A stretch of 64,000 nt of DNA. It comes from Pseudomonadota bacterium (GTDB taxonomy: Bacteria > Pseudomonadota > Alphaproteobacteria > Rickettsiales > SXRF01). Shown here one piece after another: positions 7,219-58,853 of this stretch. Under the pieces are notes generated by a model, which ran no database searches, was not told the origin of the DNA, and was given only the letters and a program-made list of their open reading frames with translations. The DNA is taken from positions 42,204 through 106,203 of the forward strand of contig JBBTBX010000011.1 of assembly GCA_038043465.1 (NCBI GenBank), given 5' to 3'. The stretch's first letter is position 1. Each line of letters opens with the position of its first letter. Made by a program: the position numbers and the translations under genes.

Positions 7219-8007
7219 ATGAGTATCTCCATAGCCACGTGGAATGTAAACTCAATCCGTTCGCGCCTGTCGCATCTGCTCGATTGGTTACGCAACGACA
7301 AACCGGAAATAGTCCTGCTGCAGGAACTCAAATGCACTGATGATGTTTTTCCGGCAATGGAAATTGAAGAGCTTGGCTACAACATCGCCATCTACGGTGA
7401 AAAAACCTATAACGGCGTTGCCATACTTTCCAAATTTCCAATAAATGACATTGTGCGCGGTCTGCCTGACAATAGCGATGATGCCCACGCCAGATATATT
7501 GAAGCGGTGGTGAGTCTGCCTAAAACTGCAATCAGGGTTGCTTCGGTTTATGTCCCCAATGGGCAGGATATTTCTTCCGATAAATTTGCGTATAAACTGC
7601 GCTTTTTAGAAAAGCTGTATGCACACATAAAAACCCTGCTTTCCTATGAAGAAATACTGGTTATTGGTGGTGATTATAACATCGCTCCGGAAGATATAGA
7701 CGTACATGATACCAAGCTATGGGAAGGCAGCGTTCTTACTCATGATGAAGTTCGTAAATACTTCCGCAAAATAACCAACCTTGGGGTTTATGATGCTTGC
7801 CGTGTTTTAAACCCGACTGGTAAACCTGAATATAGCTGGTGGGATTATCGCGCTAATGCCCTAGCCTCTGATAATGGTCTTCGAATCGACCATTTACTGC
7901 TTTCATCGCAAGCCGCTGACCGGATTTCTACATACCATGTAAAGAAAGATATTCGTGAACTGGAAAAAGCCTCAGACCACGCGCCGGTGGTTATAAGTTT
8001 TAGTTAA
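7219..8007 (+). CDS. xthA: Exodeoxyribonuclease III
   Basis: 262 aa. N-terminus ATWNVNSIRSR and C-terminal SDHAPV are typical of the EEP-family Xth. Confidence 0.9.
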   Translation: MSISIATWNVNSIRSRLSHLLDWLRNDKPEIVLLQELKCTDDVFPAMEIEELGYNIAIYGEKTYNGVAILSKFPINDIVRGLPDNSDDAHARYIEAVVSLPKTAIRVASVYVPNGQDISSDKFAYKLRFLEKLYAHIKTLLSYEEILVIGGDYNIAPEDIDVHDTKLWEGSVLTHDEVRKYFRKITNLGVYDACRVLNPTGKPEYSWWDYRANALASDNGLRIDHLLLSSQAADRISTYHVKKDIRELEKASDHAPVVISFS

Positions 8008-17587: not shown

Positions 17588-18379
17588 CTATTTTCTATTC
17601 TTTCTGCCTTCTTTTTCTGCGAGTTTTTTCTCGTTAAACACACAGACAATATCATTACCATGACGCAAGGTGAACCGGGCACTTACGCGCTCTATAACTA
17701 TGTAATCACCTCTGGTACGGTAATTAATCATAGCTTCACTGTCATCATCAGCAACCCAGTAAAAAGCGGGAACCTCAGCATTTTTATCAGCAAACTGGAA
17801 GTAAGTGAATTCACCATCATCAAATATCCGCAGAGGAGCTACTTCATCACTACCGGAAATTGTATAGCTTGCATTATATTTTCCCGGCTCGTTTTCAAAA
17901 TCCGGGTCAGGAACTGCGTCAAGGTATGAATGAGAGCCTATGCCATCATTCTTATCGTTATATGTAAAGCGCATTATAAACACCATGTTAGGATCAGTGA
18001 TATCAGCTGCCTCACGCGCTCGCAGCTCAAACAGATAAAGCCTTTTATTGGTAATAAGGGTCATATTAGTGGTTGCATCATTCTCCACCGGCTTAAGGAA
18101 TAATCTGTTCCCGGAAGGATTTATCATCCATGCGGTTGAATCGCCCATAGATATAGTCTTAATCTCTTCATCTTTTTCAAACTCAATAGCTGATTGATAA
18201 CGGTAATGCCCGTCCATTCTAAAAACCTGATCAGGCTGATAAGGTATCACGCGTACACGAGAATCTATGGGAAGAGCGCGCGAATCAATCGCTGCATTAG
18301 CAACATTGCTTCCAAGTATTGAACAAACAACTCCAAGGAAGCTCAACCAGAATCTAACATTAACATTCAAATATTTCAT
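17588..18379 (-). CDS. virB9: Type IV secretion system protein VirB9/TrbG family
   Basis: Signal peptide, then IPYQPDQVFRMDGHYRYQSAIEF...NMTLITNKRLYLFEL, typical of VirB9. Start is at MKYLNV (SD AAGGTG). Confidence 0.8.
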   Translation of the reverse strand: MKYLNVNVRFWLSFLGVVCSILGSNVANAAIDSRALPIDSRVRVIPYQPDQVFRMDGHYRYQSAIEFEKDEEIKTISMGDSTAWMINPSGNRLFLKPVENDATTNMTLITNKRLYLFELRAREAADITDPNMVFIMRFTYNDKNDGIGSHSYLDAVPDPDFENEPGKYNASYTISGSDEVAPLRIFDDGEFTYFQFADKNAEVPAFYWVADDDSEAMINYRTRGDYIVIERVSARFTLRHGNDIVCVFNEKKLAEKEGRKNRK

Positions 18380-18389
18380 AATATACACC

Positions 18390-19127
18390 TTATAAACTCT
18401 CAATGTGGTAGGATGTTACAATAAAACCATATGGCTTAACTTTACCAGTTTCCTTATCTAAACTAATATCTTCGTATATAAAAGCAATATCTACCTTGTA
18501 TTTTTCCTGTTTAATTTGCTGTTCGCCCCTTTTAAGTACGGATTCATACTTCACCCGCATATTATAAAGCTTCCTGCCATTCTCCTTCTCATTACCATTT
18601 TCAAGCTCCTCAGTCGATATAATATTGATTTTTCTTTGAGTGTTACGCTGATACATGGCAACAGGACCATACGGATTAAGAGGAGAAACAAAATCTTCAT
18701 ATTCTTTAAGCACATCAGGTCTGCTTAAATATAGCACCGCATTATGGTCACGATCAAAGAATCTGGCATCATATTCCTCACGAAGCTTAACATAATGCTG
18801 TATCAAATGCCTTCTTAGGGCAAAATCAGGATTCTCCCCGACATAATTAAGCAGGGTTCTAACTTTTGGGTAATCATCAATTATATTATTGGTAGTAACA
18901 ATAAATGGGACATTTATCTTCAGTGGGAATAACGCCATGAAAGCAACCACGCCCATAGCGGTGATAATCAATGATAATGCCGTAATAAACATATACCAGT
19001 AACGATCTGCCATTGGCTCATGCACATCAATATTGAGCATAGTCCGCGCATCACGAAAATATTCGCCACTGCGAACCTTATCAGCAATGGCTACGTATTC
19101 ATCCGGTGTCTGTTCGTTTTTTTCCAT
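18390..19127 (-). CDS. virB8: Type IV secretion system protein VirB8 family
   Basis: 245 aa with a short cytoplasmic N-terminus, a single TM helix (YMFITALSLIITAMGVVAFMALF) and a periplasmic domain. It lies directly upstream of virB9. Confidence 0.75.
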   Translation of the reverse strand: MEKNEQTPDEYVAIADKVRSGEYFRDARTMLNIDVHEPMADRYWYMFITALSLIITAMGVVAFMALFPLKINVPFIVTTNNIIDDYPKVRTLLNYVGENPDFALRRHLIQHYVKLREEYDARFFDRDHNAVLYLSRPDVLKEYEDFVSPLNPYGPVAMYQRNTQRKINIISTEELENGNEKENGRKLYNMRVKYESVLKRGEQQIKQEKYKVDIAFIYEDISLDKETGKVKPYGFIVTSYHIESL

Positions 19128-48268: not shown

Positions 48269-49690
48269 CTACGAATTCTTCTTCTTGCTACCGGAAAAAT
48301 CGCTAAGATCCTGGATAATGCGAAGCTTGATAGCATTGCGGTCAGATGCTGGAATACCATAGCGAATAGCCAGCAAAGAATAATCTTCATCAGAAAGATT
48401 AATTGGAATCTGCACTGCTTCCTGATGCGATACAGGAAGTTCTATAATGCGGCGCACCACATCAGACAAACGCATTTCATTACGTATTGCCTCATCAATC
48501 ACATGATTAGCAACACGCAGGTCGCATTCCACCGCTTCATTATCCATACCATTTACTGTTTTAGTCACTGTTTTAATCTCCTGTTTTAAATCTTTTAAAT
48601 AGCCAGACGCATAATCAGCGCCAGCAACGCCATTAGTCCCAAATTTAGCTTCACTTGTGGTTGATGCACTCATTTTGCTTTTCTCCTCGTCGTTATCTTT
48701 TATTGTTTCTGTTATAGTTGTATCATGCTTTGCAATCACAGGCTCTAGCGGTGTTGGCTCAAGGTGCGGAAGTGGTATTACATCAAGCTTAACTGCTTTC
48801 CTTCTTGGAGAATCGAACCTGTCTTTATCGTAATCTGCTTCGATTTCTTTCTGTATAGCCTTCATTGTTTCGAGATTTTCTTCTTCGAATTTTTCTTCTT
48901 CCTTCTCTGTCTTTTCTGGTACGATCAGATCCGGCTCTGGCTGTTCATTCGCCGTCTCTTTTTCCTCTGATTCTTTTATTTCTTCTTTATCAGTTATTTC
49001 GGCAAAATCTGGGGTTTTATCATCCTTAACTTCCGATTTAAAATCCACCACTTGCGATTTACCGGAATAGGTAATCTCAGAAATATCGCTGGTACGGCGA
49101 TAAATAGTAGCATAAACATCAACACTTCCATCAAGATAGGATTCAATCTCTATAGCATGTTCATTGCTGTTACTACCCAGTAAAGTATATTGGAATTCCT
49201 GACCAGAATGAGATCCATCACTGCCATCACGGAAATCAGATTTATGCAAAAATCCGCGCATACCCTGAATTTCTCGTTTATACCCACCAACCAGCCAGCC
49301 TTTTAATTCCGGCACATTATCCCGGCATTTAAAGGTAGTCATAGCTTCATCGGAGGTGATATTTTTTAACGCTTCGCTATCAAATAATTTGTTCCTGTCA
49401 CTTATGGAAATTCGCCGGGAAATAGCAAGATATTGCTCGCCCTGTGCCTCAGCAACAATCATGGACACTTCAACATCTTTATCATTGCTAAGCACAAAAG
49501 ACGTGAGAACATCCTGACCGAATTGATAGCTGTTAATTGCGGTTACCGTAAGCTTGCGTCCATTAAGAGCAACCTGTGGCACATAACCAAAACCGATAAC
49601 GCTACCGATCTGCAAATCTTTCAAGCTAAGTTTAGCTGGCTGCGCTGATTTTTTTACCGGTTTCCAGAAATCTGTAATTGCTTCCAACAT
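48269..49690 (-). CDS. Hypothetical acidic protein, possible DUF4178-like N-terminal domain
   Basis: 473 aa. The N-terminal ~170 aa has a pattern reminiscent of DUF4178 (LQIGSVIGFG...). A highly acidic Glu/Lys-rich middle and a helical C-terminus follow. Family assignment is tentative. Confidence 0.5.
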   Translation of the reverse strand: MLEAITDFWKPVKKSAQPAKLSLKDLQIGSVIGFGYVPQVALNGRKLTVTAINSYQFGQDVLTSFVLSNDKDVEVSMIVAEAQGEQYLAISRRISISDRNKLFDSEALKNITSDEAMTTFKCRDNVPELKGWLVGGYKREIQGMRGFLHKSDFRDGSDGSHSGQEFQYTLLGSNSNEHAIEIESYLDGSVDVYATIYRRTSDISEITYSGKSQVVDFKSEVKDDKTPDFAEITDKEEIKESEEKETANEQPEPDLIVPEKTEKEEEKFEEENLETMKAIQKEIEADYDKDRFDSPRRKAVKLDVIPLPHLEPTPLEPVIAKHDTTITETIKDNDEEKSKMSASTTSEAKFGTNGVAGADYASGYLKDLKQEIKTVTKTVNGMDNEAVECDLRVANHVIDEAIRNEMRLSDVVRRIIELPVSHQEAVQIPINLSDEDYSLLAIRYGIPASDRNAIKLRIIQDLSDFSGSKKKNS

Positions 49691-49718
49691 ATATAATACC
49701 CATTTTTACCACAGTTTA

Positions 49719-50231
49719 TTAGTTTCTATTCCGCATAATCCTGGCCTTATCTCTCTGCCAGTCTCGTTGCTTTATAGTGTCACGCTTCTCATACTGTTTT
49801 TTACCCATTGCCAGTGCCAATTTTATTTTCGCCAAACCGCGGCTGTTGAAGTAGAGCGACAGCGGCACCAGCGTCACTCCTTTAACTTTTAATCTTCCGA
49901 GCAACTTGCGTATCTGTTTTTTATGCAGCAGCAACTTGCGCGGACGGTTGGTTTCGTGGTTAAAACGATTCCCACCAGCATATTCCGCGATATAGGCATT
50001 AAACAGCCATATCTCGCCATCTTTCTCGCCGGCATACGCATCAGTTATCTGAACCTTATTCGCCCGTAGCGATTTAACTTCAGTTCCTGTTAACACAATA
50101 CCCGCTTCAAATTCTTCTTCAACAGAATATTCAAAACGCGCTTTGCGATTTTGCGCAATACTAGAACTGGTTTTATTACTGCCAGAGCTTTTACCAGCTG
50201 TATTGTTTTTTACCGACTTTTTTTCCGACAT
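49719..50231 (-). CDS. smpB: SsrA-binding protein
   Basis: 170 aa. [32 protein letters not shown] is typical of SmpB. Confidence 0.95.
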
Positions 50232-50274
50232 GGAATCATTCCAATACGACTACTAATAAAGATGAAAAAATCTT

Positions 50275-51150
50275 TTATAGCAAGCGCAAATTATTTAATT
50301 TTTTTTCAATCTCTTTTTGTGACGATTCTGACACCCCAACTAAAGGTAGGCGCAGATTAGCAAGGCACTTACCCATAAGTGACGCTGCATATTTAACCGG
50401 AGCAGGGCTAGTCTCGCAAAACAAAACAGAGTTTAACGCAACCAACCTATCATGCAAAGTCAGCGCACTGACATAATCTTTTTTCAAACATGCTTCCTGA
50501 ACTTCCGCGCAAGCTTTCGGCATTATATTGGACGCAACGGAAATACACCCCTGCCCGCCAGAAACATTAAACGCCACCGCCGTCATATCTTCACCAGATA
50601 GCAGACAAAAATCTTTCTTTAATTTTGCCCTTAGAGTATATGGTCGCGCCAGATCCCCAGTTGCATCTTTAAGACCAACAATATTAGGCAGTTCTGCCAG
50701 ACGCGCAATAGTCTCGTCTTTAATATCAACAATAGTTCGCCCCGGGACATTATATAAAATAATCGGTATATCCACAGCATCATTAATTGCTTTAAAATGC
50801 TGATATAAGCCTTCCTGATTCGGCTTATTGTAATATGGAGCAACCACCAGAACGCAGTCTGCCCCCGCCTTTTTAGCGTGACGCGTGGTCATTATCGCTT
50901 CATCAGTCGAGTTTGAGCCAGTTCCAGCCATAACCGGCACTCTACCCCTCGCCACTTCCACGCATAAATCAATAACACGGTTATGCTCATCATGAGTCAG
51001 AGTCGGTGATTCACCAGTAGTTCCACAAGGGACAAGCCCATGCACCCCCTGCCCTATCTGCCATTCTACAAATTTCTGGAATGCAGCTTCGTCCACAGTG
51101 CCTTTGGCAGTAAATGGGGTAATTAATGCAGTATATACGCCTTTGAACAT
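50275..51150 (-). CDS. dapA: 4-hydroxy-tetrahydrodipicolinate synthase
   Basis: 291 aa. ALITPF...GLVPCGTTGESPTL is typical of DapA. Confidence 0.95.
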   Translation of the reverse strand: MFKGVYTALITPFTAKGTVDEAAFQKFVEWQIGQGVHGLVPCGTTGESPTLTHDEHNRVIDLCVEVARGRVPVMAGTGSNSTDEAIMTTRHAKKAGADCVLVVAPYYNKPNQEGLYQHFKAINDAVDIPIILYNVPGRTIVDIKDETIARLAELPNIVGLKDATGDLARPYTLRAKLKKDFCLLSGEDMTAVAFNVSGGQGCISVASNIMPKACAEVQEACLKKDYVSALTLHDRLVALNSVLFCETSPAPVKYAASLMGKCLANLRLPLVGVSESSQKEIEKKLNNLRLL

Positions 51151-51176
51151 AATTTTAGTTGACAGTTAGTTGTTGA
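51122..51176. repeat. 55-bp direct repeat, left copy (dapA 5' end plus 26 nt upstream)
   Basis: ATTAATGCAGTATATACGCCTTTGAACATAATTTTAGTTGACAGTTAGTTGTTGA is identical to 53417-53471. Confidence 0.95.
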
Positions 51177-51211
51177 GGTTGTTGTTGGATAATGGTTATT
51201 AAACCTTCATA

Positions 51212-51844
51212 ATGCAATCGTCAACAAATATGCCAACCATTTATCAGCTTAAAAGTCGCTTTCAAGCCATATTGCGCCCCATGGTTAAAAACCTTGCATT
51301 GAGTGGAGTTACAGCCAATCAAGTAACACTCTCCGCCATCGTTCTTTCTGCATTGGGCGGTTTGTATATGCTTATTGCACCAGAAGCGCGGTTACCGTGG
51401 TTATTATTATCTCCATTACTATTTATCCGCATGGCACTTAACGCTATAGATGGAATGTTAGCACGTGAATATAATATGCAATCAAAACTCGGGGCGATTC
51501 TCAATGAACTAGGAGATGTACTGTCGGATATATTTTTATATTTGCCATTTGCATTAATTATTGGGGTTGAGAGCTGGATAGTAGTTATTATCTGCTTGCT
51601 TGCAGTTATAAGTGAAATGACAGGATTAATCAGCATCCAAATTGGTGCAAACAGACGTTATGATGGACCAATGGGAAAGAGCGATCGGGCGTTTGTATTT
51701 GGCACAGTTGGTTTACTGCTAGGGTTAGGAATAATCTCAGTATTCTGGCTTAATATAATTTTTGCTATTGTAGTTTTATTATTGCTGATAACAATTTATA
51801 ATCGTGCCAATAACGCCTTAAAGGAAGCAGAAAAGCGTGCCTAA
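51212..51844 (+). CDS. CDP-alcohol phosphatidyltransferase family protein (YnbA-like)
   Basis: 210-aa polytopic protein with signature DG(x2)AR(x8)G(x3)D(x3)D seen as AIDGMLAREYNMQSKLGAILNELGDVLSD. Confidence 0.8.
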   Translation: MQSSTNMPTIYQLKSRFQAILRPMVKNLALSGVTANQVTLSAIVLSALGGLYMLIAPEARLPWLLLSPLLFIRMALNAIDGMLAREYNMQSKLGAILNELGDVLSDIFLYLPFALIIGVESWIVVIICLLAVISEMTGLISIQIGANRRYDGPMGKSDRAFVFGTVGLLLGLGIISVFWLNIIFAIVVLLLLITIYNRANNALKEAEKRA

Positions 51845-52766
51845 TTCAACAATTATCTATGCTACAGGATGCGTATGGATATTGTTGTTTATAGCCAGCA
51901 TTATTGTTTTCGCACTTACCAAACACAGCCCAGAGAAGGATTACAAAGAATTAGTCCTCCGTACCAAAAGTTGGTGGGGAATGATTGCGATTTTTACCTT
52001 CGCTATACTTACCAGCCGTACAGTATCACTGTGGTTTCTTGGTTTATTAAGTTTCCTTGCACTCAAAGAATTTTTATCCATGATCCCTACTCGTCGCGCC
52101 GATAGGCGAGTGTTGTTTTGGGCATATATCACCATCCCTATTCAGTATTATTTGGCAGATCAAGAATGGTATGGAATGTTCATTATCTTCATACCAGTAT
52201 ATGCCTTTCTCTTTGTTCCTTTTCGTATGATTATCACTCAAAAAACCGAGGGTTTCTTAAATGCTGTTGGTAATATCCATTGGGGATTAATGCTGTGTGT
52301 GTTTGCAATTAGCCACACCGCCTATTTGCTTGTTCTACCAACGTTACCCAACCATCTATCTGGCGGTACAGGACTATTGCTTTATCTAGCCTTTCTTACA
52401 CAACTAAATGATGTGGCACAATATATGTGGGGAAAATCTTTTGGAAAACATAAAATACTTCCTATCGTTAGTCCCAAAAAAACATGGGAAGGCTTGATAG
52501 GTGGGGTTTTTACTACTACCCTCACCGCTATCATCATAGCTCCCTATATAACTCCTTTTGATATACCGCACTCTCTTTTAGCTGGTTTATTGATTAGTAT
52601 CGCTGGATTTATCGGTGATGTTACTATTTCCGCCATTAAAAGGGATATAGGAGTAAAAGATACGGGAGCAATAATTCCAGGACATGGTGGCATTATGGAT
52701 AGAATCGACAGCCTGACTTTTACCGCACCATTATTTTTCCATTTTACTTATTATTTTTATTACTAG
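51837..52766 (+). CDS. Phosphatidate cytidylyltransferase family protein (CdsA paralog, YnbB-like)
   Basis: 309 aa with C-terminal signature SPKKTWEGLIGG...IKRDIGVKDTGAIIPGHGGIMDRIDS. It overlaps the previous gene by 8 nt. Confidence 0.8.
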   Translation: MPNSTIIYATGCVWILLFIASIIVFALTKHSPEKDYKELVLRTKSWWGMIAIFTFAILTSRTVSLWFLGLLSFLALKEFLSMIPTRRADRRVLFWAYITIPIQYYLADQEWYGMFIIFIPVYAFLFVPFRMIITQKTEGFLNAVGNIHWGLMLCVFAISHTAYLLVLPTLPNHLSGGTGLLLYLAFLTQLNDVAQYMWGKSFGKHKILPIVSPKKTWEGLIGGVFTTTLTAIIIAPYITPFDIPHSLLAGLLISIAGFIGDVTISAIKRDIGVKDTGAIIPGHGGIMDRIDSLTFTAPLFFHFTYYFYY

Positions 52767-52790
52767 ATCATAAAAAATATACACGATCTC

Positions 52791-53417
52791 ATGCGTTTGC
52801 TGTTTTTTATATTGGTAAGAATAATTGTGTTAATATTGCTCGGATTGAATGTCCGCAGGGGGAAATTATTACCAACCGAAGGACCTGCAATTATTGTTGC
52901 AAATCACAATAGTCACCTAGATACACTAGTTCTCATTAGTCTTTTTCCACTTAGACAATTACACAAAATTCATCCCATAGCTGCCGCTGATTATTTTCTA
53001 AAAAACCGATTGCTGGCATGGTTCTCCACACAAATTATCGGTATCATTCCAATTTCTCGTGGTAAAGCCAGTAAGAGCTATGACCCGCTACAACCATGTT
53101 GCAATGCGCTTAATAATGGAGATATTATTATATTATTTCCAGAAGGTTCGCGCGGAGAGCCAGAACATATTTCGCAATTTAAAAAGGGAATTGCCCATAT
53201 TGCTGAACGATACCCTAATATTCCTGTTACACCAGTATTTATACACGGGCTAGGTAAAGCCCTTCCCAAAGGTGATTTCGTTTTAGTCCCATTTTTTTGT
53301 GATATATTTATAGGAAATGCATTTTATTTACAAAGTGATAAACAAGAATTTATGAACTCACTTTCCAATCAATTTGAGGCTCTATCAAATGAGAAAAAAT
53401 TTGCCCCTTGGGAGTGA
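52791..53417 (+). CDS. Lysophospholipid (1-acyl-sn-glycerol-3-phosphate) acyltransferase family protein
   Basis: 208 aa with the HX4D motif (NHNSHLD) and FPEGSRG. Its stop TGA ends exactly where the right 55-bp repeat copy begins. Confidence 0.8.
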   Translation: MRLLFFILVRIIVLILLGLNVRRGKLLPTEGPAIIVANHNSHLDTLVLISLFPLRQLHKIHPIAAADYFLKNRLLAWFSTQIIGIIPISRGKASKSYDPLQPCCNALNNGDIIILFPEGSRGEPEHISQFKKGIAHIAERYPNIPVTPVFIHGLGKALPKGDFVLVPFFCDIFIGNAFYLQSDKQEFMNSLSNQFEALSNEKKFAPWE

Positions 53418-53471
53418 TTAATGCAGTATATACGCCTTTGAACATAATTTTAGTTGACAGTTAGTTGTTGA
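53417..53471. repeat. 55-bp direct repeat, right copy (contains a 29-nt orphan dapA 5' fragment on the minus strand, 53417-53445)
   Basis: Exact copy of 51122-51176. Sequence diverges immediately after ...GTTGTTGA. Confidence 0.95.
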
Positions 53472-53495
53472 TGGTTAAAGAAGATGTCTCGGAAT

Positions 53496-53527
53496 TTTGA
53501 TGATTTGATGATTGGATTATTAGATTA
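53496..53527. repeat. Octamer tract (TTTGATGA TTTGATGA TTGGATTA TTAGATTA)
   Basis: Four consecutive 8-mers with single-step substitutions, upstream of the tRNA-Pro promoter region. Confidence 0.6.
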
Positions 53528-53559
53528 TTAAGCGAAACAATGCAATTGCTTTATAACCC

Positions 53560-53587
53560 TTGCTTAGTCATCAAATTATCTGATAAT
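53560..53587 (+). promoter_or_regulatory. Candidate sigma-70-type promoter upstream of the tRNA-Pro 5' fragment
   Basis: TTGCTT-N16-GATAAT, ending about 14 nt before the first CGGGGAG (53602). Confidence 0.35.
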
Positions 53588-53598
53588 CTGATCATCTA

Positions 53599-53620
53599 TG
53601 TCGGGGAGTAGCGCAGTCTG
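53599..53620 (+). repeat. Orphan 5' fragment of tRNA-Pro (first 19 nt plus 3 upstream nt)
   Basis: TGTCGGGGAGTAGCGCAGTCTG is identical to 53686-53707, and the sequence then diverges (CCACC vs GTAGC). Confidence 0.9.
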
Positions 53621-53688
53621 CCACCTGAACGTGAGTGAAGGATAAATTATAAAACGCTACCAGACGTTTTCTGGTGGTTGTTACGTGT

Positions 53689-53750
<62 letters not shown>

Positions 53751-53765
<15 letters not shown>

Positions 53766-55229
53766 CTCTTTATAAGAGTGTTTACCTACCATTAGTTGGA
53801 ACGGATTACGCAAGGAATACTCTAGGTTTCCGCCCTTCAAAGCGAGGTTCGAAAAAACGAATCCAATCAACTGGCGTTTTTCCTCAATTTTCGAACTTTC
53901 AAAAATTTCATAAGCTGTTGATGCTATAGAAAACAAGCCTTCCACTGTGATTTTAAAGCTATCATCACCGTTTTCATGGTTCTTTGACATGATGTTAATT
54001 TCAAGCTGCCGTTCTTTAAGTGACTGCGCTTTTATGTCGTATTCATTCTTAGTAATACTCTTATCAAGGCGCATTTCTAATAAGACATTAAGTTTATCCC
54101 TTATTTCTACATATTCCTTTTGCAGGCTTTTAACTGCTTCCATGTGAAAGTCTTTTTCGGCTTCATGTCCTGATTTTAGATGCTCGGTCAGTGCTGCTAT
54201 TAAATTGGCTGGCAAGTGGAATGACTTAAAAACTTCCTTAATCTGTTCTAAAATCTGGTTTTCAGGAATAAATAACCGCTTTTCTGGATTTTCGGGGTCA
54301 CGGCAAATCAGATAAACAAACTTGCCTTTTTTAAGGTCACAAGTAACGCGCCTGCCAGATACCGCACATTTCAACAATCCACGAAACACAAATGGCTTTT
54401 CAGTAGTTCTAACTTGTTGGGTTCTATTATTACCTAAGCGAACTTCCTGACACTTATCAAATAACTCTTTGGTTATTAATTGTTCATATTTATGCTCGTA
54501 TAGATTTCCTTTAACCTTCATTACACCATAATAAAATGGGTTTTGTAGCATCAAGTGAATCTGGCTGGATGTTATTGGTGAGTTTGTTTTTCTGTTAGTA
54601 AGACCCCACTGTTTAACTTTTCTGGCTAAATCGCCTGAAATTGAATTTGTGCCATTGGCATATTCCATAAATAACTTACGAACTAAAAACGCTCTTTCTG
54701 GGTCAAGTATGATAGAGGCTTTACCGCTATTATTGCGAACATTGAGATAACCAAGCGGTGCTGCACTTGTCCATTCGCCATTACGAACCATGTATTCCAT
54801 GCTACGGCGCACATTCTCGGAAAGGTTAAGTACATAAGACTTTGCACCCATAACCGAAAAATCCCAACGCAGAATATCAGAAGAAGTTGCATTCTGGTTG
54901 ATAATCATATTTTCACGGTAAAAATGCAGTTCAACCAATCCCTTTTGCCGTAACTCATCAATCATTACCGATTCTTTGAAACTACGCTGGAAGCGGTCTA
55001 CGGCATCGGCAACTATAGCAATGGTTTCTTTCTGGACTTTGGCAAAATCCAACATAGCGTTAAATTCAGTTCTTTTGCCCCTTGTGGATGATTCTATAAT
55101 TTCAAACACTTTGATGACTTCAAGCCCTTTACGCTCACAGTAATCAATTAAACGCTGTTTCTGTGCGGAAATGGAATGTCCATCTTCCTGCTCTTTGGTT
55201 GATACACGCGCTAATATCACGGCTTTCAT
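53751..55229 (-). CDS. Large serine recombinase (resolvase/invertase N-domain + recombinase domain + zinc-ribbon)
   Basis: 492 aa with N-terminus AVILARVSTKEQEDGHSISAQ (catalytic Ser region), the recombinase-domain pattern PLGY...LKCAVSGRRVTC and a coiled-coil C-terminus. The last 15 nt overlap tRNA-Pro. Confidence 0.85.
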
Positions 55230-56125
55230 AAAACTGCCTTTCTATAAATATCATTTAGTGTACGACCATCAGAAAGTTTCCATGTTATCCAGCCATTAAG
55301 GGAGTTGCCAACAATCAAACTTGCGGCGGCTGATGGACTTGGAAATAAATAATTTTCTACAAAAAAGAGAGTTCCATTTTTATCATTAACAACATTATCC
55401 TTAATCAATTTTTCTCGAATATTAACCACATTTGTTTTTGATAACGATTCGCTTAAATCCTTTGATAACTTTGCACCCGCAAATACTAAGAACCCCTCCT
55501 GAGTATATTTGCCGGATGCTTCTGCGCCACGTCCTTTAATTCTAAACAACATATCATCTGATGATTGTATCGTATTAGTATTGCCGGAAATAGTTAGAGC
55601 AGGTTGCCTAGTAGAAGTTAATGGCTGGAATATATTTAATCCTAATGTAGAAACCAACAAATCAATACTATCAAAGTTATCAAATAAATCAGCTTCTGTT
55701 GATTCTGGCGCATAAGGTTTTGTTGGTATATTGCCGTTTTCTAATAAGCACCTATTGGCATTAGTTGCTTTATTATGACAAAGCCATTCCAAGAATTTGA
55801 CATGCGTTTTTGTTAAATGCTTACTGTTGGAAGTTAGGGATATAGCATAATTCCAAAAGTCCTTATTAGCATTGTGATTTAGAAGCCTTGTATAAACCAC
55901 CTCGGCTTCGCCAATATATACTAGCGGTTTTGCATGTTCTTCAGATGAACCTACTAATAAATATATTCCCACCCCTTGCAATGACTCACGCGATTTAAGG
56001 TCACTTAGCTTTGCTCTTGGTATATAAGTAGCCTCTATATTCCTATTACGGATATGGGCAACCTTAACCCCTGTAGGCTCACCATCTGGAAGGAATATTT
56101 CTATGGTACGCGCTCCAGATACCAT
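55226..56125 (-). CDS. GIY-YIG nuclease family protein with C-terminal DUF4357-like domain
   Basis: GIYLLVG...VYIGEA (GIY-YIG), an N-terminal TIEIFLPDGEPTG segment and C-terminal FPSPSAAASLIVGNSLNGWITWK. Start is taken at MVSGART (ATG 56123-56125). Its stop overlaps the recombinase ATG (ATGA). Confidence 0.7.
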   Translation of the reverse strand: MVSGARTIEIFLPDGEPTGVKVAHIRNRNIEATYIPRAKLSDLKSRESLQGVGIYLLVGSSEEHAKPLVYIGEAEVVYTRLLNHNANKDFWNYAISLTSNSKHLTKTHVKFLEWLCHNKATNANRCLLENGNIPTKPYAPESTEADLFDNFDSIDLLVSTLGLNIFQPLTSTRQPALTISGNTNTIQSSDDMLFRIKGRGAEASGKYTQEGFLVFAGAKLSKDLSESLSKTNVVNIREKLIKDNVVNDKNGTLFFVENYLFPSPSAAASLIVGNSLNGWITWKLSDGRTLNDIYRKAVL

Positions 56126-56126
56126 C

Positions 56127-56447
56127 TTATACCCCTGCCCTGTGTTCAATATGCTGGTAGGGCTTTATTTTGGCTACCTGTGCGGATATTTTCTGTCTGG
56201 CTTCCTTTGTGTCATAGAGAATCTGCAACTTTTGGAAAAATCCATCGGTAAGACCAAAAAACTTACACAAGCGCAAATCGGTATCGGCGGTTATGTCGCG
56301 TGTTCCATTGACAATGGCATTGATACGGTTAGGGGGTACGCCAATAGCCTTTGCCAGTGCGTTCTGGCTCATTCCTATTTCATCTAAAAGTTCAGTTTTT
56401 AGAATATCCCCAGGATGTGGGTTCTTTAATTTGTTTGTCATAATCAC
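56127..56447 (-). CDS. higA: HigA family antitoxin (XRE-type HTH)
   Basis: HPGDILKTELLDEIGMSQNALAKAIGVPPNRINAIVNGTRDITADTDLRLCKFFG is typical of HigA/VapI. Confidence 0.85.
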   Translation of the reverse strand: MIMTNKLKNPHPGDILKTELLDEIGMSQNALAKAIGVPPNRINAIVNGTRDITADTDLRLCKFFGLTDGFFQKLQILYDTKEARQKISAQVAKIKPYQHIEHRAGV

Positions 56448-56469
56448 AACCTTTCAATCACTACTGCTT

Positions 56470-56751
56470 TCAATGATAATCAACTATTTCAACTTTCTCG
56501 ACCTCGCCGTCATTCCATACAAAACAAATGCGCCATTGGTCATTAACTCTGATACTCATTTGCCCTTTCCTTTTGCCAGATAATGATTCTAAGCGATTAG
56601 CCGGAAAACGCCTTAAATCTTCTAGTTCAAGTGCTGTATCCAGCAAACTTAGCTTTTTAAGCACCCTGTCCTGAATGTCGGCAGGGAATTTTTTAGATTT
56701 CTGCACATTCCAGATTTTTTCAGTTTCTTTACAAGCAAACGAGATAATCAT
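56470..56751 (-). CDS. higB: HigB-type toxin (plasmid maintenance system killer, RelE superfamily)
   Basis: 93 aa. FACKETEKIW...LEDLRRFPANRLESLSGKRKGQMSIRVNDQWRICFVW is typical of HigB. Confidence 0.85.
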   Translation of the reverse strand: MIISFACKETEKIWNVQKSKKFPADIQDRVLKKLSLLDTALELEDLRRFPANRLESLSGKRKGQMSIRVNDQWRICFVWNDGEVEKVEIVDYH

Positions 56752-56780
56752 TTTACACCTTTACTATATCATTGTACGCT

Positions 56781-57905
56781 TTACGTAACAAGTACATTTT
56801 TATCTATATTCACTGCCTTCAATAAATATCCATCTTTTGTTATTTCGACCTCAAATGTTCCAAAAAATGGAATATATGTAAGCTCTTTACTACCTTTATA
56901 TTCTGGAACAGAAACTTCGCTAGCAAATTTACCATTTGCCGTAATCAACTGTTTATTATTATCTTTTTTAATATTAAAGTTCCAAATAGATAGGGGTTCC
57001 ATATTAATTTTAGCTGACAATTTTTTTAATTTATCCAAAACGTGGGCATGTGATGGATTACTAATAATTTGGTCTTCAATAAATATAGTTATAACTTCCC
57101 TCAGGAGATTTTTTAATCCTGCTACAGGCTGTTCAATAAGCCTATCCCAGTTTTCAACACTGTCTTCATAATTTCCAGCCCAGAAATTTTCTATTTTATC
57201 AAGCAACTCTGTCTTAGCACGCTCATAATCAGACTTGAGGTCATCAGATAAAGAGCGGTTGTGCATAATACAATTACGAGTATTTTCAATTGGAGTTAGA
57301 ATTGCTTTAATAGAAAGCAAAAAATCCTTATGTGTTTCATTTTGAACGCCTCTATCCAAAATAATGTTTCTGAATTGTTCAAAAGTTTCTGTTTCTGTCA
57401 GTAAATTAGTAACATCTTGTTCGCTTAATTTCTTATTATCAAGCAGGTTGGTATAATGTGAAAAAAGCAGATAGAAGAATTCATTGCTATAATTATTACT
57501 ATGTTCATTAGCTCGCTTGTCAATGTATTTAGCCAGGGTCTTATCCTGGTATAGTGGCGTTATGTTTGTATATTGCAGCAAATTATGAGGGTTTTCTGGA
57601 AATCTATTCAGAAATATATAAGTTAGAACCTCACGCAAACTCATTTCTATAGTGAAGATTTCCTGATATATAGTTTCATGTTGTTTATATAAAATAGGGT
57701 CATAAAATTTTACAACAGCTTCAATTTGCTCTACCGCCTGCAATGCTTTCAATATGTCTGGAATTACAATTTTATTTTCACCAAAGTTTTCAGCAATTAG
57801 GCTTACACGAACAAGTATTTGTTTATTTGGCAACCAGTCACAACTTTCTAAATCTACCATATCGAGTAATTGTTCATTAGAAAGCTCTTCTATTGAACTA
57901 TACAC
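56781..57905 (-). CDS. Hypothetical protein with HEPN-like Rx4H motif (Swt1/Abi-like), candidate abortive-infection effector
   Basis: 374 aa with a GTG start. Helical region aa ~85-240 carries MSLREVLTYIF and TRNCIMHNR (R210-x4-H215, DNA 57261-57278), followed by a ~130-aa beta-rich C-terminal domain. No confident family match by eye. Confidence 0.45.
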   Translation of the reverse strand: MYSSIEELSNEQLLDMVDLESCDWLPNKQILVRVSLIAENFGENKIVIPDILKALQAVEQIEAVVKFYDPILYKQHETIYQEIFTIEMSLREVLTYIFLNRFPENPHNLLQYTNITPLYQDKTLAKYIDKRANEHSNNYSNEFFYLLFSHYTNLLDNKKLSEQDVTNLLTETETFEQFRNIILDRGVQNETHKDFLLSIKAILTPIENTRNCIMHNRSLSDDLKSDYERAKTELLDKIENFWAGNYEDSVENWDRLIEQPVAGLKNLLREVITIFIEDQIISNPSHAHVLDKLKKLSAKINMEPLSIWNFNIKKDNNKQLITANGKFASEVSVPEYKGSKELTYIPFFGTFEVEITKDGYLLKAVNIDKNVLVT

Positions 57906-58494
57906 CTGGCTGATGGTATCGTGAATTAGCCATTGCGAATTGTTCTTTTTTACTACTAAAATCTACTCCTGTAGATATAGGAAAACCACCCCTTTTACGC
58001 CATGTTCCAGACATATTGTCACGACAAGAAAAAGGCAAAGTGCTTTCAAAAACACTTTTATGATTTAGGAAAGCCCAGAAAGACTTGGCATAATTGCCTT
58101 TTAATGAATCAAAATTTTCTAAAAAATCTATGTTGCAATATCGGCTTTCATCCAAAAGAAGTTTTACTCCTGTATCATAAGAAAGGGCGAAAATATCCTG
58201 AAAGTCAGTATCTATATTTGCCCTTGCCTTATCTGGTAATTGCTGGATAGCATCAAACAAAGGTGCAATATTTGTTGGTCTTATTTCATTAAAATCAATG
58301 TCGCTTAATAATCCATCACGCTTAAAATACTCTGCCAACATATCGTTGGGTACTGCTCGTAAGAAGCCCTTGAGTGCATAGTGCCGCATAATACTACTTT
58401 CAATAAATACATCTTTCCAACCTCTAATGAGAACTAACGGCACTGCCTGCGCCAAGTACAATATATAGTATTTTTGCGGACTATTCAATACCAC
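57898..58494 (-). CDS. Hypothetical protein, upstream partner overlapping the HEPN-like ORF by 8 nt
   Basis: 198 aa from GTG 58494 (163 aa from ATG 58389). No recognisable domain. It could instead be the N-terminal part of a frameshifted single ~570-aa gene. Confidence 0.4.
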   Translation of the reverse strand: MVLNSPQKYYILYLAQAVPLVLIRGWKDVFIESSIMRHYALKGFLRAVPNDMLAEYFKRDGLLSDIDFNEIRPTNIAPLFDAIQQLPDKARANIDTDFQDIFALSYDTGVKLLLDESRYCNIDFLENFDSLKGNYAKSFWAFLNHKSVFESTLPFSCRDNMSGTWRKRGGFPISTGVDFSSKKEQFAMANSRYHQPGV

Positions 58495-58582
58495 ATCAGG
58501 TAATTTCTTATAGCAATCAATGACTATGTAAAGTTGTACACATATAAAACTCTCAACATTGATAAATGCAGCTATTTTTAGC

Positions 58583-58600
58583 GGTCGTGGGTTCGAATCC
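58583..58600 (+). repeat. tRNA-Pro T-arm-like 18-mer (candidate att remnant)
   Basis: GGTCGTGGGTTCGAATCC versus GGTCGTAGGTTCGAATCC at 53734-53751 (17/18). The downstream sequence cannot complete a T-stem or acceptor stem. A second shorter TGGGTTCGAA lies at 58686-58695. Confidence 0.6.
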
Positions 58601-58853
58601 GTACACAGGATTCATATTACAGTACTATGCCGCCTTTGAAAACTTGGGCATATAGCTTGATAGTTTGATAATTTCCGCATAATGTTGGGTTCGAAGTGTA
58701 TCAACTACTTTCGACCATATTCTTCAAGGTTCATACCGTGGACGCAGGTTACGCATTAAGGCATTTGGACGTATGCCCTCACCCCCAAATACACCTGACT
58801 AACGAATATCATTTAACAAAACTGAAATAGCAATTTGCCACCAGCGTTTTTGC

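Follow-up and report, generated by a model that had tools for sequence, protein, structure and literature searches.

A ynbA-ynbB-acyltransferase operon bounded by 55-nt direct repeats at the dapA start of an alphaproteobacterial genome

In Escherichia coli, YnbB is a non-essential paralogue of CdsA that cannot substitute for it, and its overproduction raises the level of the MPIase glycolipid (PMC6362211); ynbA is activated by BglJ-RcsB (PMC3950696). Beyond YnbB with MPIase and the regulation of ynbA, nothing was found in the literature on ynbABCD or on the three-gene cluster treated here. This cluster, a ynbA-ynbB-acyltransferase operon (the cassette), lies between exact 55-nucleotide (nt) direct repeats at the start of dapA in a stretch of 64,000 nt of contig JBBTBX010000011.1. 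The whole stretch is called the window; coordinates are positions in it, and labels of the form L0xx are other contigs or loci compared with it. A first-pass annotation, made from the letters of the window, had pointed out the arrangement.

For the way in which the cassette is placed, the closest described systems are the dusA-specific islands, which reportedly replace the 5′ end of their target, and the cis-mobilisable elements (CIMEs) of Streptococcus thermophilus, which are said to carry attachment (att) repeats without an integrase. In addition, several types of illegitimate integration are known, among them homology-facilitated illegitimate recombination, SPDIR (short-patch double illegitimate recombination; described in bioRxiv 10.1101/2023.11.22.568220) and template-switch insertions.

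The repeats and the insert between them

The sequence at 51122–51176 is identical to that at 53417–53471 (55/55 in an exact alignment), and the match can be stretched to 61 nt at 97% identity with two mismatches; a third copy of the 55-mer was not found within the 64 kb of the window. Each copy comprises the first 29 coding nucleotides of dapA, whose ATG stands at 51150 on the minus strand, and 26 nt of its leader. The left copy (51122–51176), with dapA codons 1–10, is the one in functional use; the right copy (53417–53471) is an orphan dapA start with its leader, where tblastn gave a DapA fragment at 53445–53359. The dapA gene (50275–51150, minus strand) is intact and encodes a 4-hydroxy-tetrahydrodipicolinate synthase of 291 amino acids (aa), which scored 355 bits with TIGR00674 and 308 bits with PF00701 and aligns over its full length to the proteins of relatives at 75–87% identity. 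The repeat is unstructured, with a minimum free energy of −0.2 kcal/mol and a z-score of +1.3; neither a hairpin nor dyad symmetry was found in it, and it matched no Rfam family.

Both copies and their spacing of 2295 nt were reproduced, identical, in four other assemblies, namely L001 (MEGAHIT, ERZ27245622), L002 and L003 (SPAdes, Hainich groundwater) and L097 (JGI 3300025173). Three Logan unitigs (k=31) begin in the left copy, 30 nt from its end, and two of them end 30 nt into the right copy; the unitigs L004 and L005, of 2300 nt, run from inside one copy to inside the other. A real 55-nt repeat is expected to split a de Bruijn graph in this way. The repeat is thus confirmed as real and is no assembly artefact. 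The first-pass annotation had described exact 55-bp direct repeats, made of 29 nt of dapA and 26 nt upstream, with an orphan right copy, and had allowed for their collapse on resequencing; the alignment, the position of the ATG, the four assemblies and the unitig structure all agree with its description.

When GTDB species genomes were scanned with DapA, the window grouped with uncultured alphaproteobacteria, several of which are metagenome-assembled genomes labelled Rickettsiales. In four of these relatives (L007, L008, L009 and L010; DapA 75–87% identical), dapA-smpB is followed by a gene for a hypothetical protein of 473 aa, with infC beyond it in L007 and L008. The metagenome contig L096 (DapA 87% identical) also carries dapA and smpB; it was the one further locus returned by a single scan of metagenome DNA, and it is an empty site. 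In all five, tRNA-Pro(UGG) is located about 90–310 nt upstream of dapA and is divergent from it, the distance being about 150 nt in L007, L009 and L096. Cassette genes were present within 8 kb of dapA in 0/80 alphaproteobacterial loci, and a duplicate of the dapA 5′ end, sought within about 8 kb, in 0/80 other alphaproteobacterial dapA loci, a limited sampling. In the neighbour-joining tree of DapA and SmpB, L009, L096 and L007/L008 form a group that takes in the window species (with L001), and L010 falls outside it. Since the window species is nested among relatives with empty sites, one gain is more parsimonious than at least three precise losses, which supports the cassette as a single gain specific to the lineage of this species.

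The flanks of the cassette differ in origin. On the right, the spacer at 53472–53598 aligned with the dapA-tRNA-Pro spacer of L007–L009 and L096, and it holds the block GGTTAAAGAAGATGTCTC; this block, or one like GGTTAAGAAGGTGACTC, is conserved about 30–47 nt upstream of dapA in the relatives. On the left, the 53 nt between the left copy and the first cassette gene (51177–51229) are of foreign origin: they fail to align with the spacer of the relatives in the multiple alignment, and they stand in place of the ancestral dapA upstream sequence beyond −26. A likeness of this segment to the ancestral spacer had been seen by eye, and the same alignment gave it no support. As the right flank aligns with the spacer of the relatives and the left flank does not, the insert corresponds to 51177 to about 53416 plus one repeat copy. 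The claim of the first-pass annotation that a segment was inserted between dapA and its ancestral upstream region therefore holds, on the five empty-site relatives, the alignment of the right flank and the nesting in the tree; the arrangement that it proposed to look for in relatives, dapA next to tRNA-Pro, is present at these same five loci, all without the cassette. The G+C content is 38% in the cassette and 42% in the flanks.

As a consequence of the insertion, dapA retains 26 nt of its native upstream sequence, and the ancestral block is now directed, in antisense, at the 3′ end of the acyltransferase gene. Promoter-like sites at consensus level occur on the plus strand at 51186–51213 and on the minus strand at 51236–51209, although hexamers of this kind in 51186–51236 are no commoner than in shuffled sequence. 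The present dapA promoter would lie within 51177–51240.

Two strain types of the species, 99.56% identical over the region, both hold the cassette and its identical repeats. From dapA to the tRNA gene, the differences between them are one single-nucleotide polymorphism (SNP) in the cassette and one indel of 8 nt in the spacer. The cassette is present in both strain types and missing in the sister species, so the insertion is older than the strain split and younger than the species split.

The operon, its relatives and its possible function

The first gene (51230–51844, plus strand) encodes a YnbA-like CDP-alcohol phosphatidyltransferase of 204 aa. Its start is more likely at 51230, as called in the other assemblies and in homologues, than at 51212. 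The protein scored 35.9 bits with PF01066 (cut-off 22; profile positions 3–151 of 152), and 195 of its 204 aa, in effect the full length, align with E. coli YnbA at 47% identity (E 6e-49). The first-pass annotation had assigned the gene to this family and had read in it a DG..AR..G...D...D signature; the family assignment stands, and the full canonical motif does not. The canonical D1xxD2GxxARx8Gx3D3x3D4, with all four Asp, is replaced by NxxDGxxARx8Gx3Nx3Dx3D, in which Asn stands at D1 (N71) and at D3 (N92). These two Asn are invariant in 8/8 aligned members of the family, E. coli YnbA included, which suggests that metal binding may be altered in the YnbA family or that the acceptor may be a non-standard one. 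The family also has an invariant RRYDGPxGKSDRA block (window 51230–51844; L095 3622–4227).

The second gene (51837–52766, plus strand), which the first overlaps by 8 nt, encodes a YnbB-like CdsA paralogue of 309 aa. It matched PF01148 with 229.9 bits, as expected for the CdsA-family cytidylyltransferase first proposed for it, and shares 47% of its residues with E. coli YnbB across 294 aa, again the full length (E 4e-90). With the NCBIfam CdsA equivalog model it reached 118.8 bits, where the cut-off is 385, and in the C-terminal half only; this partial match below the cut-off agrees with YnbB being described as a paralogue of CdsA (PMC6362211). The E. coli K-12 reference sequences of ynbA and ynbB were taken from NC_000913.3. 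The resemblance to the ynbA-ynbB pair, noticed earlier without searches, is thus found at 47% identity for both proteins, and the two genes clearly match YnbA and YnbB at the level of predicted orthologues.

The third gene (52791–53417, plus strand) encodes a PlsC/Aas-like HX4D acyltransferase of 208 aa with the native C-terminus ...APWE. The HNSHLD (HX4D) and FPEGSRG blocks are present and conserved, and the score with PF01553 was 81.8 bits, in line with the lysophospholipid-type acyltransferase family initially named. The protein scored 70.1 bits with TIGR00530 (NCBIfam AGP_acyltrn), below the cut-off of 102.95, and 74.9 bits with the model of Aas-type acyl-ACP phospholipid acyltransferases; as these scores are nearly equal, they do not settle 1-acyl-glycerol-3-phosphate as the substrate. 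Paralogues of the three cassette proteins, namely housekeeping cdsA, pgsA and plsC, were absent from the 64-kb window, a result that is uninformative for the whole genome.

The operon of ynbA, ynbB and acyltransferase is 60–80% conserved across Alpha-, Beta- and Gammaproteobacteria. Homologues of the YnbB type number in the thousands, and the best 120 are all of about 310 aa and 61–81% identical; those with a name belong to Alpha- (Stappia, Roseibium, Micavibrio), Beta- (Nitrosomonas) and Gammaproteobacteria. The gene order was the same in the contexts checked, which represent at least six unrelated neighbourhoods. In L087, PGM and tRNA-Pro(GGG) are found and the cassette adjoins a vWA gene; in L088, tRNA-Pro(GGG) is found and the cassette adjoins BrnA; in L098, lon, HU and GNAT genes lie on one side and xseA on the other; L089, L090 and L092 are three further distinct contexts. 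Flanking repeats were sought around the cassettes of L087, L088 and L089, where only matches at chance level appeared. A fourth gene, for a product of 184–196 aa, overlaps the 3′ end of the acyltransferase gene in 5/7 contexts; it is not present in the window, L088 or L089. Its product is a membrane protein with a faint VTT/DedA-like Pfam signal (L087 8518–9108; L090 8553–9110; L092 8577–9146; L098 8553–9107).

The closest cassette DNA is 73% identical to that of the window. The organism of L087, whose cassette stands beside vWA, shares vWA (77% DNA identity) and an ECF-sigma gene (67%) with the window, and the window position that matches this cassette site is occupied by a polyprenyl synthase gene. 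The source of the cassette was probably a four-gene operon of another, related alphaproteobacterium. In L087 (6240–6316) and L088 (6178–6255) the cassette lies 78–139 nt downstream of tRNA-Pro(GGG), and its counterpart in the window stands upstream of tRNA-Pro(UGG). A repeat of the tRNA-Pro(GGG) end was looked for downstream of the L087 and L088 cassettes and none was seen; the linkage of the cassette to tRNA-Pro genes may be real or coincidental.

As regards function, the cassette is likeliest an accessory lipid module. In such a module, the YnbB-type enzyme would form a pool of CDP-diacylglycerol from phosphatidate, the YnbA-type transferase would pass the phosphatidyl group to some acceptor, and the acyltransferase would supply or remodel acyl chains. 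The route written in the first-pass annotation, from lysophosphatidic acid to phosphatidic acid, CDP-diacylglycerol and phosphatidyl-X, would be one form of this and is deduced from the predicted enzymes. It is also conceivable, if rather improbable, that the operon, with or without the fourth membrane protein, moves between genomes by horizontal transfer and forms a self-contained pathway to a lipid not yet characterised, for example a sugar-pyrophosphate-diacylglycerol anchor of the MPIase type. The Asn-variant YnbA would then use a phosphate and not an alcohol acceptor, and the repeats might allow the operon to leave by looping out and to enter sibling genomes again, with no recombinase of its own.

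Entry into the dapA locus and its neighbourhood

The right junction is the more readable of the two. The stop codon of the acyltransferase gene, TGA at 53415–53417, overlaps the beginning of the right repeat by its last base, so that the stop indeed falls at the repeat boundary, as had been stated. The W-E-stop C-terminus is conserved in all homologues. In L087, L090, L092 and L098 the fourth gene begins 10–62 nt before the acyltransferase stop, and 29 nt before it in the closest ones, L098 and L090; in L087, L090 and L098 its ATG or GTG is in the same register as an ATG at 53389 of the window. From this ATG a tentative remnant of the start of the fourth gene (53389–53421, plus strand; MRKNLPLGSD*) runs into the dapA fragment. 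This frame overlaps the conserved 3′ end of the acyltransferase gene, so that it is no independent evidence and is at most suggestive. The donor segment was probably cut inside the fourth gene, and an insert end at a native stop with a readable start of the next gene suggests an arbitrary breakpoint. Just left of the repeat, the sequences beside the two copies agree in register at 6/8 bases (estimated chance probability about 0.01), which at most may represent junction microhomology. Longer homeology was searched for at the right junction by setting the dapA 5′ region against proxies of the donor (L087, L090, L098 and others); the result was not significant, L088 being marginal. The three mismatches left of the right copy fall on third codon positions of dapA codons 10–12, and a divergent, attP-like dapA allele was considered for this reason; it is ruled out, since TGG GAG TGA is the native W-E-stop of the acyltransferase in all homologues.

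We propose, with moderate confidence, that the cassette arrived by a one-off illegitimate integration guided by microhomology, which duplicated 55 bp of the target and kept dapA intact; a dedicated mobile element was probably not behind the insertion. A foreign piece of about 2.24 kb with the ynbA-ynbB-acyltransferase operon would have integrated once at the 5′ end of dapA. One end of the insert would have been joined at dapA codon 10 and the other 26 nt upstream of the start codon, and because these joins are 55 nt apart, 55 nt were duplicated. The left copy would keep dapA whole, and the right copy would be left as an orphan, still attached to the ancestral spacer and tRNA-Pro. Joining may have proceeded by template switching or by double (staggered) illegitimate end-joining, and selection would let only products with an intact essential dapA persist. 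The repeat, the gene families, the empty sites of the relatives, the nesting in the tree and the varied positions of homologous operons were observed; the joining mechanism, the donor and the enzymology are what we infer from the present arrangement.

Several points weigh against this proposal. A target duplication of 55 bp is unusually long, and exact direct repeats of this length resemble the att sites of elements driven by integrases, which are encoded a few hundred bases away, beyond tRNA-Pro. The mechanism is not readable from the product alone, and with the closest homologue at 73% DNA identity microhomology at the left junction cannot be assessed. A relocation within the genome of the clade, instead of horizontal transfer, is also possible.

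Among the alternatives, an entry of the Campbell type is unlikely, though it survives best. A circle with a dapA 5′ segment and the operon, which could come from loop-out in a sibling strain, would have recombined by a single crossover in the 55 nt of identity. The single crossover of a circle duplicates the homology around the insert, and 55 nt are within the reach of RecA-dependent recombination; the repeats would permit loop-out too. Nevertheless, such an event explains spread and not origin, since an illegitimate step would still be required to join the acyltransferase stop to dapA codon 10 in the first place. Moreover, every contig with the exact protein has it in the dapA context, and a circle of 2.3 kb would lack replication or transfer functions.

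A little less probable, in our view, is a non-autonomous integrative element, that is, a cis-mobilisable islet whose repeats are attL and attR and whose recombinase acts in trans. The candidates for the latter are the tyrosine integrase or the serine recombinase of the tRNA-Pro islands, and the cargo would bring a replacement dapA 5′ end, in the manner of islands that target dusA or tRNA genes and restore the gene they enter. Exact direct repeats do bracket the cargo, the dapA 5′ end is restored, integrases lie 0.3–0.6 kb away in both strain types, and the locus is a proven integration hotspot. On the other hand, only three lipid genes stand inside, with no own or identifiable cognate recombinase, and the neighbouring islands use the 3′ end of the tRNA gene and not dapA; serine recombinases, besides, are not known to create long repeats. 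The site is not used recurrently (none of the 80 dapA loci with a second 5′ end), homologous cassettes stand elsewhere without such repeats (L087, L088 and L089), the right end coincides with a stop codon, probably within a fourth gene that was cut short and not at a defined element end, and the repeat has no dyad symmetry or hairpin. The earlier claim that the cassette encodes no recombinase was upheld by the Pfam search. Neither a transposase nor terminal inverted repeats were found in the cassette by Pfam and repeat searches, and the 55-nt duplication is unlike the short target duplications of insertion sequences. Integron features were equally missing, with no attC hairpin and no IntI, and the repeat is native dapA sequence in the relatives. 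A Xer/dif-like or attC-like site was also considered from ATGTTCAAA and rejected, as it amounted to a by-eye likeness of half-sites with no hairpin and no Rfam family.

It is very improbable that the cassette is ancestral at dapA and was lost in the relatives through recombination between the repeats. A direct-repeat deletion would give exactly their single-copy empty site, but at least three or four independent precise losses would be required, the outgroup L010 included. Further, the orphan copy, which is unconstrained, is still identical at 55/55 positions although the segment differs at several positions between species, and related organisms hold homologous operons at other loci. Finally, an artefact of assembly or a chimera can be set aside even though the window probably stems from a metagenome-assembled genome, as the same structure was obtained by two assemblers from different samples with k-mer sizes above 55, and the unitig breaks fit a genuine repeat.

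Beyond the right repeat lies tRNA-Pro(UGG) (53689–53765, plus strand), an integration hotspot at its 3′ end. The first-pass annotation had called it so, and the two strain types bear this out by carrying different islands 3′ of the tRNA gene. In the window, a large serine recombinase gene (53751–55229, minus strand; PF00239 and PF07508) is the first gene of a low-GC island that extends to about 58.7 kb; it is outside the repeat-bounded segment, and its stop codon overlaps the 3′ end of the tRNA gene. The island (53751–58700; G+C 31–39%) includes the serine recombinase, a DUF4357 protein, HigBA and two open reading frames, and a further copy of the tRNA-Pro 3′ end that would bound it was not found in the window. 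In the other strain type (L001 11938–20930; L097 6371–10372) there are a tyrosine integrase, AlpA, a type I restriction-modification system and Fic. A partial second copy of the tRNA-Pro 3′ end (tcaatcctatctccccgac) is located in L007 at 7600–7640, about 150 nt downstream of the tRNA gene, and probably marks the distal att site of an island that is small or has decayed.

Between the ancestral spacer and the tRNA gene, outside the cassette, a unit of 87 nt (53599–53685) combines 22 nt copied from the tRNA-Pro 5′ end with an insert of 65 nt. The 22-nt part is exact and includes 3 nt upstream of the tRNA gene; the insert comprises an inverted fragment of the tRNA D-arm (CGCTACCAGAC) and a terminator-like hairpin of the minus strand. 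Two such units stand in tandem in L008 (7692–7865) and none in L007 and L096. Like the cassette, the unit is an insert with a duplicated target at its sides, and this shared geometry hints at template-switch events at the dapA/tRNA-Pro locus. On the other side of dapA, the strain types differ by 22 SNPs over 6.8 kb, and 18 of these are crowded into 670 nt around smpB (49634–50300); the 18 are mostly synonymous, and the cluster looks like a recombination patch. Farther away, at 17588–19127, genes for VirB9/CagX and VirB8 stand apart from other type IV secretion genes, beside gpsA and nadA. Such scatter of VirB8 and VirB9 is typical of Rickettsiales-like bacteria.

Comparison with known systems

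The locus is of known kinds, a YnbAB-type lipid operon probably gained by illegitimate recombination, and not a new class of mobile element. It offers a well-resolved natural case in which a complete operon was spliced into the start of an essential gene and the cell survived. The insertion duplicated 29 coding bases and 26 leader bases of dapA, yet exchanged the remaining upstream region of this gene. The locus also draws attention to an operon of ynbA, ynbB and acyltransferase, with or without the fourth gene, that is strongly conserved at many genomic positions, and the sister species provide a natural comparison with and without the lipid operon.

In relation to E. coli ynbABCD (ynbA b1408, ynbB b1409), the first two genes, their order and their tight linkage are the same, and E. 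coli YnbA likewise has Asn at the first and third Asp positions of the motif. The difference is in the genes that follow. In E. coli, ynbC (hydrolase/methyltransferase) and ynbD (phosphatase) come after ynbAB, whereas in the window and in many Proteobacteria the partner is the HX4D acyltransferase, often together with the membrane protein of 184–196 aa.

As in dusA islands and CIMEs, direct repeats bracket the cargo, the 5′ end of the target is duplicated and there is no internal integrase. The window differs from them in that no sign of dapA as a recurrent att site was seen (0/80), no cognate integrase was identified, the homologous cassettes checked (L087, L088 and L089) are unflanked and the end of the insert is arbitrary. 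With illegitimate integration the locus shares the dispensability of a recombinase, short imperfect matches at the junction, arbitrary cargo ends and the one-off nature of the event. The known events of this type usually replace or delete target sequence, or they concern short patches, whereas here an operon of 2.24 kb was added with a clean duplication of 55 bp.

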